A stretch of DNA of 64,000 nt. It comes from Octopus sinensis. Taxonomy: Eukaryota. The notes beneath the pieces were generated by a model, which saw only the letters and a program-made list of their open reading frames with translations, was not told the origin of the DNA and searched no databases. Where the stretch lies: contig NC_043016.1 of NCBI RefSeq assembly GCF_006345805.1, forward strand, positions 30,566,001 to 30,630,000. Direction: 5' to 3'. Made by a program: the position numbers and the translations under genes. Of the stretch, positions 43,148-45,764 are shown piece after piece; the stretch's first letter is position 1; every line of letters begins with the position of its first letter.

Positions 43148-43601
43148 CTTAAATAAAAGAAATAGAAAAAAAATAAGAAAAGAAAAATATAATACTTTAA
43201 GTGAAGGAAACTTTTCACATTAAAAGGCTGCACATTGAGTATTTAGCATAATCAATAAGATGTTCTGTTCTCTCTTGTACTCTTTTACTTGTTTCAGTCA
43301 TTTGACTGTGGCCATGCTGGAGCACCAACTTCAGTTGAGCAAATCGACCCCAGGATTTATTCTATCGGCGTAAACACACCAGCATCGGTTGTCAGGCAAT
43401 GTTGGGGGGACACATACAGACACGCAAACACACATAAATATATTTACATATACATATATACAACAAGCTTCTTTCAGTTTCTGCCTACCAAATCCACTCA
43501 CAAGGCTTTGGTCAGCCCGGGGCTATAGCAGAAGATATTTGCCCAAGGTGCCACACAGTGGGACTGAACCCGGAACCATGTGGTTGGTAAGCAAGCTACT
43601 T

Positions 43602-45064
43602 TATTTTATTAAATTTGCCATAAAGGCAATACACAGAGGGGACACTACAACACATGTGGGGACATATAACAATTAAAAAATAAAATATGATATAATGAAT
43701 GAACATGAAAATGCACATGAAGAACAAATTAAAATATGATAATATGAATGATATCTGAAAATGATATTATGAAGAGTGTGCTACTCACCCCACACTGAGT
43801 AACACAACTCGCTGTCTCTGGGTCCTGAGTCCTTTTTCTCTTTTCATCCAATCCTTTTTCCCTTTTCACTGTCACTTAATGATAACATTCTCTCCGTTAT
43901 GCATTCATAACCTTTTTCACCGGGAGGTGGGGGGTCTTCTAAATTTTGTGGTGTCTGTTCTTTCTTTTTCTTTTTTTCTTGAGGGGAAATGGGGTGGGTG
44001 GGTTTGGTGTCTGTATGGGGAGGGTGGGTCTGAGTGGTCTTGGGTGGGATGGGGTTGGACCGGGGTGCCACATCATACTCAGTGTCTTTTCTTTTTTTCC
44101 TCTTTCTCCTATTGCGCTCTGCAATTTTCCATTCTTCCTCTTTTTTATTGTTTCCTTCGTCTATTTTGTCTTCCTCTCTTTTCTCTTCTGTCTCCGCAAC
44201 TATATCCTCAGCCGTAGTCCTTCGTAGAGGGCAGTATGCTCTAATGTGGCCCTTTTGGCCACATTTGAAATAACGTGGTACTCTGCCCTCTACCCACACC
44301 CTCAGCACGATTTCCCCCAGCGTCACAGTCTCTGCCAAGTTCTCAAGTTGTCCCTCTTCCGTCTGAATAATTAACTCGAGCGTCCTTCCTTTCCACCCTC
44401 CTTCAGTTTCTGTGGCTTGGAGGACAGCCACCTTCTCCTCGCTTCCAACAAGGACAGCTGCCGCTACCCAAGCCACATTTATGTCAGGCGGAATTCCTTC
44501 TACCCTTATCTTGGAAGTCCTTCTTCCAAGATACGTGGGTAGAAGGACCATTTCCTTCGTCTTTATGGTTTTACCCGCCAGCCTCCTTGCCTCCTCCTCT
44601 GTTCTAAATTGGACTACCATTGTCCCATATTGGCATGTATATTACTCCGTTGGATTCCTCCTTTACTGCCTTTTCTATTTTCCCTATTTCTATTTGGTCG
44701 ACCGTCTTACTCTTTATCGAGTAAATTTTGTATATGACCGTTCTTCTTTTTATGCCATCCATTATTCTTTGTGGGGGTGACAACGCCATGTTGCCGCCCA
44801 CTTTCTGCACCATTTTTCTATGCTCCTTCATTCTTGATAAATCCACCTCTTTTCTCTTCACCTCCACAGCCTCGGCGAAACTCTTCGTTTTCTTCAAATA
44901 TTCATCCATGCCTTCTACTGCTCTCAGCAGCTCCTCCTCTGAAGAAGACAGCTCAGACCCACTAAGGTCCAAGTACATTACTAACCTCAAAGCAGCAAAA
45001 GGAAAAACGTCCGACTCGCACACAAACGACAAACCAAATGCACTATGGGTAACCGGAAGCAAGC
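43602..45064 (-). mobile_element. 1.46-kb retroelement encoding only an ORF1/gag-like zinc-knuckle protein (HAL1/Tx1-like), TSD-flanked
   Basis: TSD tggt(a/t)agcaagctactt at 43585-43601 and 45065-45081; AATAAA and an A-rich 3' end at ~43602-43615; no RT or endonuclease coding. Confidence 0.8.
43844..44978 (-). pseudogene. Frameshifted ORF1-like gene (RRM-like region, [Y]FKCGQKGHIRAYC knuckle, acidic/basic tail)
   Basis: ATG at 44978 (MYLDLSGSELSSSEEE...); frame switch near 44635 to QYGTMVVQFRTEEEARRL...KIRVEGIPP...WVEGRVPRYFKCGQKGHIRAYCP. Confidence 0.8.
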
Positions 45065-45764
45065 TGGTTAGCAAGCTACTTACCACATAGCCACTCCTGC
45101 ATGTTCCATCAAAATTTTTTTATTGCAAACATTAAATAGAATTCAGTCTATACATTATTTGTTTGAGAAAGTCTGTGATAAAATTAGAACTCTGTCGGTT
45201 ATTTAATACATCAGAGTTTGTAGGCTCCCTAAGCAACAGATGGAAAGCACACAATATATTTTTTATCTCTACTAGCTGACACGGTGATTCAGGATAACTT
45301 TGTTACCAGTAAAAGAAGAAAGGAGTATACTGCATCAATATCAAATTGCTAACTCAATGCAAATTTATTGTTTGTCGCACAACTAATATTCAAAGTTGTG
45401 TTCTACTTAGGAGTCATACTTTTAACATTAATGTAATGGACAGTCTTGACAGAATATTTTAGTCATGACCATCAGAATTAGCTGAAATTGAGCAATTTAC
45501 TGCAATAAAAAAAGCATCTCTTCCTACAATGTCGTGCTAGACTTAAAAAGCATGTGATGTTCTCCAAATACTTGCAATTTGTAATTTGCTCAGTTATTTG
45601 CTGTTTACAAGACTTTTCTTTGACAAGAATCCTTGCTAGTGGTAAAATACATCTATATTAGAACTTAGCTGTACTATTATAGATCTAAGAGCAAAAGTCT
45701 CTAGCTGACTGGACCACTACAAGAAAAACTAGATCTGGGATAGAGGCATTAGGTTAAGTTCATA

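Follow-up and report, generated by a model that had tools for sequence, protein, structure and literature searches.

Organization of the locus

The window, that is, the entire 64-kb stretch of octopus DNA analyzed here, contains a retroelement copy of about 1.46 kb that lies on the minus strand within the head of a SINE and encodes a single ORF1-like protein. The components of the locus, in the order in which they are read on the minus strand, are as follows.

45065..45100, minus strand: SINE head, which makes up the 5' part of the interrupted SINE; its positions 45065-45081 are the upstream member of the direct repeat (variant ...GCTAACCA)
43602..45064, minus strand: ORF1-only retroelement copy, about 1.46 kb, dead; delimited by end-to-end genomic relatives
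44979..45064, minus strand: 5' UTR, 86 nt, beginning with GCTTGCTTCCGGTT; the genome contains 13 exact matches to its first 26 nt
44604..44978, minus strand: first piece of ORF1, 124 aa, starting at the ATG at 44978; predicted N-terminal helical region and start of RRM-like domain 1, according to the model of the intact relative P0001
43844..44620, minus strand: second piece of ORF1, 258 aa; predicted to hold what is left of RRM-like domain 1, which ends at about 44567, then RRM-like domain 2 at about 44285-44551, the knuckle and a basic low-complexity tail, the domains being assigned from tandem-RRM fold matches
44231..44272, minus strand: CCHC zinc knuckle YFKCGQKGHIRAYC, with Tyr replacing the first Cys (Pfam zf-CCHC, 14.8 bits)
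43602..43843, minus strand: 3' UTR, about 240 nt, ending with AATAAAATAAA and containing the conserved tail ...GTCCCCTCTGTGTATTGCCTTTATGGCAAAT...AAATAAAG
43615..43629, minus strand: small tail hairpin TTGCC-TTTAT-GGCAA, supported by 74 tails and present also in the tail of the RT-bearing LINE described below
43585..43601, minus strand: second member of the direct repeat, on the downstream side, with the variant ...GCTTACCA, running on into the SINE body
43340..43601, minus strand: rest of the interrupted SINE on the 3' side, extending at least to 43340, from by-eye comparison with other SINE copies

This layout bears out the original prediction of an element that splits a SINE, with a 5' UTR of about 85 nt, a 3' UTR of about 240 nt (240 nt as measured) and, in 1.46 kb with one frame, no room for a reverse transcriptase (RT) or endonuclease. 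The first seven bases of the 5' UTR, GCTTGCT, repeat part of the target. The 17-bp direct repeats flanking the element differ by one mismatch (TGGTAAGCAAGCTACTT at 43585-43601 and TGGTTAGCAAGCTACTT at 45065-45081), and the element boundary is ambiguous by the 2-3 A's that the element and the SINE have in common. With at most one mismatch allowed, the repeat pattern is found at 7 positions of the window, compared with an expectation of 0.01; the excess reflects its being SINE sequence. An uninterrupted SINE at about 46163-45900 (minus strand) reads straight through the insertion site.

Compared with eight close relatives, the window copy carries two frame-changing indels, an 11-bp deletion near 44636/44637 that ends the first ORF1 piece early and a 2-bp insertion at 43928-43929 that shifts the end of the frame, as well as an in-frame 3-bp deletion at 44405 and only 15 private substitutions. 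Thus, the predicted gag/ORF1-like frame is indeed single, whereas its predicted single frameshift turned out to be two frame-changing changes. The loss of the first knuckle cysteine was read correctly: the intact relatives have Cys at this position. The window copy is broken and cannot act by itself.

A family of ORF1-only elements

Nineteen genomic copies match the full 1461-nt query from end to end at 78-100% identity, and two more were found later, giving 21 full-length copies of about 1.46 kb with the same 5' and 3' ends; 5'-truncated copies exist as well. The longest frame, at locus L002, encodes 402 aa with an intact CCHC. Copies of the subfamily to which the window element belongs mostly differ by about 4-7% pairwise, and several diverged subfamilies exist; several ORF1-only families coexist in the genome. 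None of the copies has room for an RT or continues into an ORF2, and the protein search yielded no fused longer ORF1-ORF2 proteins. The proposal of a family that is non-autonomous yet supplies an ORF1 protein of its own, represented by many copies with common ends, is therefore upheld by at least 21 full-length copies that lack ORF2.

Several apparent exceptions were discarded. In the representative search, the long protein matches proved to be chimeras, gene models in which Helitron, WD40, C2H2 or LDL-receptor domains are present, and a copy at C14:355 Mb that seems to stop after the ORF is 3'-deleted, not ORF2-bearing. A classical SINE is ruled out by the 1.46-kb length and coding content of the element, within which no Rfam small-RNA matches were detected.

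A single target site in the SINE head

Wherever the ends of a copy are readable, the copy either interrupts the SINE head at ...GGTAA|GTAGCTTGCT(A/T)ACC... or follows another unit as part of a head-to-tail array. Among the 21 full-length copies, the upstream neighbor is a SINE head directly in 16, a degenerate head in one (L012) and the tail of another unit in four; downstream, eight are followed by the SINE body and 13 by another unit. Ten of the 11 truncated or variant copies also end at the SINE-head core. Within arrays, a single core copy separates neighboring units, and each unit has the identical core on both sides. Several unrelated families of cassettes, as well as the LINE described below, use this one head-core junction. 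Insertion into a SINE head is a general property of the family rather than a chance event of one copy. The genome still contains 54,048 uninterrupted exact 29-mer target sites. The head looks tRNA-like by eye; neither ARAGORN nor Rfam recognizes a tRNA in it.

These observations change the reading of the 17-bp repeat, originally considered a target site duplication (TSD). Distinct TSDs had been expected for different copies together with a possible target preference; the preference proved to be a single fixed SINE-head site for all 21 full-length copies (20 clear ones and L012), and the repeat is common to all family copies, which makes it a fixed target mark rather than a chance TSD. The genome has seven type-1 5' junctions, and the upstream variant is A (GCTAACCA) in every one of them; L018, whose type-1 junction has diverged and is not counted among the seven, reads GCACGCTAACCA upstream. 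Among the type-1 copies followed by the SINE body, the downstream variant is T in L001, L014 and L018, and A in L095 only. Uninterrupted SINEs commonly have either core variant, so that an upstream variant that is constant in the seven junctions, combined with a downstream one that is mostly T, gives the upstream repeat the appearance of being carried by the element. Hence, the direct repeat itself is real, but it is probably not a plain duplication.

The eight copies that are at least 93% identical to the window copy all lie directly behind a head, and five of these have another unit downstream. Judging from this pattern, the arrays seem to record the order of arrival. The invariably head-proximal position of young copies, although arrays offer further cores, suggests recognition of head sequence lying upstream of the core.

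Given that a head or another unit precedes every copy, the head could itself belong to the mobile unit, so that a composite SINE and ORF1 cassette would transpose as a whole instead of inserting into resident SINEs; a precedent of sorts is the acquisition of snRNA-derived heads described for crocodilian Tx1 and SINEU elements (PMC4494074). We consider this very unlikely. The variant, the deletions and the 5' flanks of the neighboring SINE halves are not the same in all copies, the downstream neighbor is another unit rather than the SINE body in 13 of 21 cases, and one head-core junction serves unrelated cassettes and a LINE alike. Furthermore, T runs on the sense strand would be expected to stop Pol III starting from the head. 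Insertion into resident SINEs is thus the reading adopted below.

The ORF1 protein

Between subfamilies, the dN/dS of ORF1 is 0.21-0.31 at dS of 0.64-0.88, in line with the ratio below 1 anticipated for a mobile family; the frame is kept by purifying selection. When both window frame pieces and an intact relative were compared with Pfam, the knuckle was the only domain found, with no RRM; the zf-CCHC score of the intact relative, 20.3 bits, is just below the 20.8-bit curated cut-off. In the structural model of ORF1, the region of residues about 40-260 has a pLDDT of roughly 55-95, mostly 85-95 from residue 70, and Foldseek places tandem-RRM proteins at the top of its matches, among them IMP3 RRM12 (E 2.5e-5). 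The protein is accordingly predicted to consist of two RRM-like domains and a CCHC knuckle. The claimed RRM plus knuckle layout is consistent with this predicted fold, whereas a match to RRM or ZCCHC3 at the sequence level was not obtained.

The same predicted order, two RRM-like domains followed by a CCHC knuckle, likens the protein to vertebrate ZCCHC3 and to type-I LINE ORF1 proteins, a resemblance suggested by the predicted fold and an atlas score of 0.90. The latter proteins, with which we compared the layout, are reportedly those treated by Khazina and Weichenrieder in 2009. The likeness differs from a family assignment in that the Pfam models of the ZCCHC3 RNA-binding domains (RBD_ZCCHC3_1st/2nd), like RRM models, match none of 20 octopus family members.

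The atlas hit, to a ZCCHC3-type cluster, is also a lead, and only a lead, for the alternative that the element is a retrocopy of a domesticated, ORF1-derived host gene. The database homologs, the closest named ones from Octopus sinensis and O. bimaculoides, are likewise annotated as ordinary octopus proteins, either uncharacterized or CCHC-type. Such a retrocopy, or a one-off prematurely polyadenylated LINE, is nevertheless hardly credible: the homologs form a dispersed family rather than one host gene, with full-length copies that possess their own UTRs and fixed ends and fall into several diverged subfamilies, insertion is strictly target-specific, no copy runs on into ORF2, and the ZCCHC3 models fail to match. 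The retrocopy proposal was accordingly rejected in favor of a mobile family.

An RT-bearing LINE at the same site

An autonomous LINE sharing the ORF1 or the 3' end had been suggested as a possible source of enzymes, and such a LINE was found, with the same ORF1 type, tail motif and site. At locus L158, a SINE head is followed by a 5433-bp copy of this LINE that has an ORF1 frame; its ORF2, open over 1137 aa, contains an APE endonuclease (Exo_endo_phos, 3e-11), an RT (RVT_1, 5e-27) and a C-terminal zinc-binding domain (zf-RVT, 7e-9). Over 245 aa, the ORF1 protein of this LINE and that of the ORF1-only element share 35% identity (E 6e-46). Of 29 sampled relatives of an RT-bearing copy, 28 end with ...AATGGCAAAT...GAAATAAA|GTAGCTTGCT... 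at the same SINE-head site, and at L015 the unit directly downstream of an ORF1-only copy is the 5' UTR of the LINE. The 27 LINE copies compared are 97.9-99.3% identical pairwise (about 1.3% divergence), indicating a young family. Because the sampled partner is younger than most copies of the window subfamily (about 1.3% against about 4-7%), L127, L130 or another older lineage may have supplied the enzyme at the time when that subfamily was copied.

We also searched twenty 10-kb flanks of ten arrays for RT. Frames of at least 250 aa were present at five loci and represented low-complexity sequences, ORF1-type units, LTR-type pol (by eye) and one APE/RT LINE (L050). The L050 LINE carries a similar ORF1, but it was rejected as the partner, given that it targets a different repeat and has no DNA similarity to the element; none of the 30 closest relatives of its RT has a SINE-core end. 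A further candidate pattern, ATAATAAAG...AGCTTGCTT, occurs at 8 places versus 2 for the reversed control and was dismissed as well, none of the six places opened being RT-bearing. L1-Tx1 is among the LINEs reported as recently active in O. vulgaris (PMC13282606), and on this ground the Tx1 clade is a candidate placement for the octopus LINE; the RT clusters matched in the atlas carry no clade names.

Related tails and evidence for an RNA intermediate

The tail motif and its hairpin are conserved in 74 tails, with 94.9% of cells paired, both-side changes in three of the four pairs, and a covariation score reached by 0 of 500 shuffles; these values refer to a hairpin of 4 base pairs that was defined from the same sequences, in tails selected by a filter requiring a near-match to ATGGCAA. 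Across the genome, 505 tail-core junctions are of the TTATGGCAA type and 64 of the partner's TAAATGGCAA type, with 0 for the reversed control in both cases. The tails of the LINE and the ORF1-only elements are related and differ at several positions.

At locus L009, 96 of the 129 private substitutions are A>G on the sense strand, versus 5 T>C. This strand-specific burst has the appearance of the footprint of an edited RNA and points to an RNA intermediate. The 3' ends of copies carry AATAAA, as originally noted for the window element, and L005 has a longer (ATAAA)n tail. In contigs from four runs, whose RNA status is a guess, coverage is thin over parts of the element and very deep over the SINE flanks; contig joints that skip about 1480-1500 bases come from other, uninterrupted SINE copies.

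The identical core around every unit, with a single core copy between array units, is what would be expected if the units were DNA cassettes moved by site-specific recombination at GTAGCTTGCT(A/T)ACC, a process that would give both direct repeats and tandem arrays. The hyperedited copy, the 5' truncations, the AATAAA and (ATAAA)n 3' ends and the presence of an APE/RT LINE at the same site all argue for retrotransposition instead, and none of the frames of at least 250 aa in the twenty array flanks encodes a recombinase. We regard recombination as extremely improbable.

Proposed mechanism of mobilization

The window element is, in our assessment, a dead copy of an ORF1-only, non-autonomous non-LTR element at a fixed SINE-head site, most likely copied by the endonuclease and RT of the LINE that uses the same site. 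Mobilization in trans by the partner ORF2 protein is inferred from circumstantial features of the sequences, namely, the same site, the related tail and co-residence in arrays. Under this scenario, the element RNA would be translated into the protein with two predicted RRM-like domains and the knuckle, which would coat its own RNA; the partner ORF2 protein would recognize the shared 3' tail (the small hairpin followed by AAATAAAG), nick the SINE head and prime reverse transcription at the nick; and the 5' end would be joined through the GCTTGCT homology between the element leader and the target. Each new insertion would land directly behind the head and push the older units downstream, so that arrays form.

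The choice of target could instead reside mainly in the RNA. Target-derived end sequences (the 5' leader ...GCTAACCA-GCTTGCT and possibly 3' read-through) would then anneal to SINE heads and steer a loosely specific enzyme, the donor being any of several related LINE families. The apparently element-borne upstream repeat, with the A variant in all seven type-1 junctions, fits this scheme, and so do related LINEs whose RT domains are 83-99% identical and that adjoin quite different sequences (a repeat of about 360 bp, U1 and U2). However, type-2 copies that lack the leader occupy the same site, and the head-proximal position of young copies suggests recognition of the head upstream of the core. 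Specificity set by the endonuclease is, moreover, the established rule for APE-type target-specific LINEs. On balance, an RNA-chosen target appears unlikely, and copying by the same-site LINE remains our preferred explanation.

A broader and more speculative interpretation, to which we give limited credence, is that the SINE site constitutes a private niche, in which a guild of long-lived, selected ORF1-only half-LINEs parasitizes one endonuclease/RT LINE, in a division of labor akin to that of HeT-A and TART but at an interspersed, non-telomeric target. The ORF1 protein or the RNA leaders might then share in homing, rather than merely coat RNA.

Comparison with known elements

HAL1 of mammals is described as a non-autonomous LINE derivative encoding only ORF1p that arose several times (PMC5753468). 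The octopus element resembles it in its ORF1-only coding and in the existence of several ORF1-only families; however, HAL1 derives from mammalian L1 and, in the available text of that source, is not described as target-specific, whereas the octopus element occupies one SINE site and forms arrays. It is not HAL1 proper, considering that the host is an octopus and that the closest named homologs are from octopuses. Its ORF1, for comparison, has the two predicted RRM-like domains and the knuckle, and no Pfam domain other than zf-CCHC.

Drosophila HeT-A, together with TART and TAHRE, is a case in which ORF1-only lineages are reported to depend on the ORF2 of co-resident families, to persist and to diversify (bioRxiv 10.1101/2025.06.09.658640). 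As described there, these elements share with the octopus system a single specialized target and head-to-tail arrays mixed with an RT-bearing partner, but they belong to the Jockey clade, have a Gag with an MHR and knuckles, target chromosome ends and serve the host. The octopus elements, in contrast, use an internal site of an interspersed SINE present in tens of thousands of copies, with no evident host benefit.

In crocodilians, Tx1-Mar and SINEU-3 are reported to share a fixed site within Mariner-N4_AMi, so that a LINE and its non-autonomous dependants reside inside another transposon (Kojima 2015, PMC4494074). According to the same description, insertions in tandem have a single target repeat between them and the 5' end includes target-derived sequence, as in the octopus. 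The crocodilian dependants are short, non-coding SINEs with snRNA heads in a DNA-transposon target, whereas those of the octopus encode a selected ORF1 and target a SINE head.

Both ORF1-only LINE derivatives and target-specific LINEs are already known, and the octopus system is a variant of these. Our literature searches found no published description of ORF1-only or SINE-targeting LINEs in cephalopods; in the main text of the O. vulgaris repeat paper (PMC13282606), as far as it was available, the terms ORF1, site-specific and nested are absent.

In the octopus genome, several ORF1-only lineages and their likely enzyme donor coexist at a target that is precise to the base and highly abundant, and young copies are available. 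LINE derivatives restricted to ORF1 are rare, and their workings are poorly understood. The system makes it testable whether the LINE ORF1 protein matters for mobilization when the ORF2 protein comes in trans, and why target-specific niches, such as fly telomeres, favor repeated loss of ORF2. For annotation of octopus genomes, the units explain many short "CCHC-type" gene models as well as chimeric predictions. The hyperedited copy at L009, finally, indicates that cephalopod RNA editing can enter DNA again via retrotransposition.

Structure of the window copy

The window contains a 1.46-kb ORF1-only retroelement that splits a SINE into a 5' part (head) and a 3' part (body):

43602-45064, minus strand: ORF1-only insert
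45065-45100, minus strand: SINE head
43601 and downward, minus strand: SINE body
43585-43601 and 45065-45081: 17-bp direct repeat flanking the insert, with one mismatch
44231-44272, minus strand: knuckle, reading YFKCGQKGHIRAYC

Another SINE of the window (approximately 46163-45900, minus strand) is uninterrupted and continuous across the insertion site. The insert consists of an 86-nt 5' UTR starting with GCTTGCTTCCGGTT, a single gag-like frame in two pieces of 124 aa (ATG at 44978) and 258 aa (end at 43844), and a 240-nt 3' UTR with the terminal sequence AATAAAATAAA. The original prediction of this layout, from the split SINE and the direct repeat to the UTRs, the gag-like frame and the Tyr-bearing knuckle, was accurate on a check of the sequence. 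Defects were called against eight close relatives. Two deletions, of 11 bp near 44636/44637 and of 3 bp (in frame) at 44405, and two insertions, of 2 bp at 43928-43929 and of 1 bp within the 3' UTR, are joined by Tyr in place of a knuckle Cys that is kept in relatives. The frame is therefore disrupted as predicted, but by two frame-changing indels (the 11-bp deletion and the 2-bp insertion) rather than one. A CTTCCGG motif near the 5' end of the element, shared with an old LINE copy (L127, see below), may be part of a putative internal promoter.

A family of ORF1-only elements

The window's own 2.72-Gb genome was searched at the DNA level; of 667 first-look candidates, 40 were scored, producing 55 matches. 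At least 19 of these cover the whole query at 78-100% identity, and two full-length copies were added later, for a total of at least 21; 5'-truncated copies are present as well. None of the family copies examined has room for ORF2. The finding is real, and the predicted multicopy ORF1-only family with common ends is supported. Several copies retain long frames, among them L002 (402 aa, CCHC intact), L003 (357 aa), and L013 (347 aa), and private substitutions are fewest in the window copy (15 in 1461). The subfamily of the window copy is small, given that its exact 26-nt 5' end occurs at only 13 places in the genome.

Nei-Gojobori estimates of dN/dS are 0.21-0.31 between the two main subfamilies (at dS 0.64-0.88) and 0.39-0.77 within subfamilies, indicating that the ORF1 frame was under purifying selection along the copy-producing lineages. 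One copy, L009 (G000:C25:26959438-26960872), carries 129 private substitutions, of which 96 are sense-strand A>G and only 5 T>C; the A>G changes affect about one-fifth of its A's, compared with 2-6 such changes per copy in the other eight copies. Strand-specific bursts of A>G are a known signature of ADAR hyperediting of RNA that is later reverse-transcribed. Judging by its substitution pattern, L009 records RNA editing, probably by ADAR, that retrotransposition wrote into DNA, and the pattern indicates an RNA stage in the movement of the family.

Predicted organization of the ORF1 protein

The only domain detected in ORF1 with Pfam is zf-CCHC. A library-wide HMMER search retrieved 413 relatives at E-values up to 0.001, mainly short gene models, the named homologs being an uncharacterized protein of Octopus sinensis and CCHC-type and C2H2-type proteins of O. 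bimaculoides. An AlphaFold2 model built from a 20-sequence alignment has a mean pLDDT of 72.6; over residues 40-260, block values lie between about 55 and 95, and most are 85-95 beyond residue 70. In the PDB, the top Foldseek hits are tandem-RRM structures, namely, IMP3 RRM12 (E 2.5e-5), followed by Sxl, HuR, and hnRNP A1 UP1. The predicted layout comprises an N-terminal helix, two RRM-like domains, the knuckle, and a basic tail. The atlas pointed to a ZCCHC3-type cluster at 0.90, a score that we treat only as a lead to a possible ZCCHC3 relationship; among the 20 family members tested, there was no sequence match to ZCCHC3 domain models. Several public gene models join ORF1-like sequence to C2H2 zinc-finger, Helitron/PIF1, LDL-receptor, or WD40 domains (P0005, P0032, P0046, and P0117), and these fusions are probably annotation chimeras caused by the elements.

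A fixed insertion site and tandem arrays

The insertion site of the family is fixed in the SINE head. Every full-length copy has an ...AAATAAA terminus followed by the target core, GTAGCTTGCT(A/T)ACC, and the same core is found at the 3' terminus of 10 of the 11 truncated or variant copies, the exception being L011, which has lost its 3' end. Neighbors were tabulated on both sides of 21 full-length copies.

Neighbors of 21 full-length copies
Upstream, SINE head ...GGAGTGGCTGTGTGGTAAG: 16 copies, and L012 with a degenerate head
Upstream, 3' tail of another unit: 4 copies
Downstream, SINE body: 8 copies
Downstream, another unit: 13 copies

Because the genome contains 54,048 uninterrupted exact 29-mers of the target site, unused targets far exceed the occupied ones. 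Where a family copy is followed by another unit, this is a different ORF1-bearing cassette, roughly 2 kb long, whose UTRs differ; at one locus, L031, a minimum of six ORF1-like units lie in tandem within 9.7 kb. All eight copies with 93% or more identity to the window copy lie directly behind the head, five of them with a further unit downstream; this fits insertion always occurring between the head and the first core, with older units displaced downstream. The putative order of arrival is read from the position of the units.

The downstream units at L032, L035, L003, L010, L013, and L019 represent ORF1-only families of about 2.0-2.2 kb at the same site, and their 5' UTRs contain an exon-intron-like junction, ...CAAG|GTAGGC..., resembling a retained unspliced 5' intron. 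The upstream flanks of L002 and L014 consist of partial SINE heads (…GGAGTGGCT(G/A)…), followed by ATAG and a complete head, a pattern suggesting that SINE copies use another insertion hotspot of the head, located a few bases further 5'.

The junctions with the head are of two types. In type 1, GTAGCT(T/C)GCTAACCA lies between the head and the element start, GCTTGCTTCCGG; all seven such junctions in the genome have the A variant of the core upstream (a diverged one in L018, GCACGCTAACCA, is not among the seven). The downstream core of the type-1 copies that adjoin the SINE body has T in three copies (L001, L014, and L018) and A in L095 alone; both variants are common in uninterrupted SINEs. 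Since plain duplication should yield identical copies, the upstream repeat copy appears to be element-borne, and these few junctions are suggestive of a leader inherited from the donor locus. The 17-bp target site duplication originally proposed thus holds as a flanking direct repeat but is probably a true duplication only in part, with A upstream and mostly T downstream. In type 2, the GTA of the head continues straight into GCTTGCTTCCGG, as expected from joining via the shared GCTTGCT.

An enzyme-bearing LINE at the same site

The tail-plus-core pattern TTATGGCAA...TAAAG(T/A)AGCTTGCT occurs at 505 places, and the reversed control pattern at none. Among the first 30 of these places, ORF1-type coding sequence lies upstream in 17, RT plus the ORF2 C-terminus in one (L099), and neither in 12, including one with a weak antisense match. 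The RT-bearing copy from this set (L127), a LINE of 5.5 kb in a decayed state, is flanked by a SINE head and the SINE body. With its ORF2 and 3' UTR DNA as the query, 5033 candidates were obtained, 40 scored, and 29 relatives fetched, of which 28 have the terminus ...GTCCCCTCTTTGTAAATGCCTAAATGGCAAATTATATGAAATAAA|GTAGCTTGCT(A/T)ACC at the same site. One LINE copy, in L158 (5433 bp), lies behind a head and has an ORF1 frame together with an ORF2 that is open over 1137 aa; another, in L159, has the head on one side and the body on the other. The ORF2 of this likely partner LINE matches Exo_endo_phos, RVT_1, and zf-RVT, and its ORF1 aligns with the ORF1-only protein over 245 aa at 35% identity (E 6e-46). 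Sequence comparison thus shows that the same site is occupied by an APE/RT LINE whose ORF1 is homologous and whose tail is related.

The partner family is young, as 27 copies are 97.9-99.3% identical pairwise, and its tail type has 64 exact junctions. In L015, the unit that follows immediately on the ORF1-only copy is the partner 5' UTR, which is also present inside the L031 array. Most copies of the window's subfamily are older than the partner family sampled, and the donor at the time may have been an older RT-bearing lineage at the same site (L127, L130).

From the analyzed loci, 74 tails were aligned, selected with a regular expression for the junction plus an approximate ATGGCAA; this set reflects the removal of two junk rows and the manual addition of one. 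Common to these tails is ...CTCT.TGTA..TGCC....TGGCAA.....AAATAAAG, including a 4-bp stem, TGCC/GGCA, in which 94.9% of cells are paired. Changes on both sides occur in three of the four stem pairs (7 cells), with wobble intermediates; the observed covariation score was reached in 0 of 500 shuffles, and shifted-partner controls were 11-66% paired. As a short stem whose definition comes from these same sequences, it is a supported lead as a candidate recognition element.

In the mechanism we propose, the element RNA would be bound by its own ORF1 protein; the partner ORF2 protein would recognize the tail, nick the SINE head, and reverse-transcribe the RNA in place; and the 5' end would be joined via leader/target homology. 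In the main rival explanation, the target would be set by RNA leaders and not by the endonuclease.

Short non-coding elements at the same SINE-head site, in L094 and the L021 upstream flank, have a tail near-identical to that of the partner (TTTGTCTGTCCTTGTTTGTCC.CTCT...). The middle region of the SINE (window 43340-43440) resembles the partner LINE tail, and there are hints that the targeted SINE may itself be a client of this LINE.

Comparison with known systems

The mammalian HAL1 is an ORF1-only derivative of L1 (PMC5753468); it differs from the octopus element in its L1 origin and in that no target specificity is described for it in the available text of that source. The closest working analog that we found is the fly telomere, where ORF1-only elements of the HeT-A type depend on the ORF2 of TART/TAHRE-type families, head-to-tail arrays are formed, and frequent loss of ORF2 is reported to be confined to that niche (bioRxiv 10.1101/2025.06.09.658640). 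Crocodilian Tx1-clade LINEs and SINEs target another transposon, with tandem insertions enclosing one target copy (PMC4494074). L1-Tx1 elements are among the recently active LINEs of O. vulgaris, and the main text of that study, as far as available, does not mention ORF1-only or site-specific elements (PMC13282606). Our literature search found no account of such a system in cephalopods. The octopus system falls within known kinds, combining a half-LINE with a target-specific LINE guild, and is not a separate category; what distinguishes it is the presence of multiple selected ORF1-only lineages and a young partner at a single base-precise, hyper-abundant target.

Related LINEs at other targets

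Another LINE with a homologous ORF1, APE, and RT (L050) targets a different repeat; none of its 30 closest RT relatives is at the SINE core, all being elsewhere. This LINE (L050 and L056-L063, e.g., G000:C1:139266000-139270200) is young and very abundant, with 50,661 first-look candidates in an RT search and frames of more than 1100 aa in many copies, and its target is GGAAGCGACACCTACTG within a tandemly repeated element of about 360 bp. In related APE/RT LINE families, the terminal ...ATAATAAAGA(T/A)TTT directly abuts position 1 of a full-length snRNA: U1 in L072 (G000:C15:29.05 Mb; 125 bits) and U2 in L082 (C3:19.73 Mb; 184 bits). Other relatives adjoin additional distinct sequences starting with ATCG....
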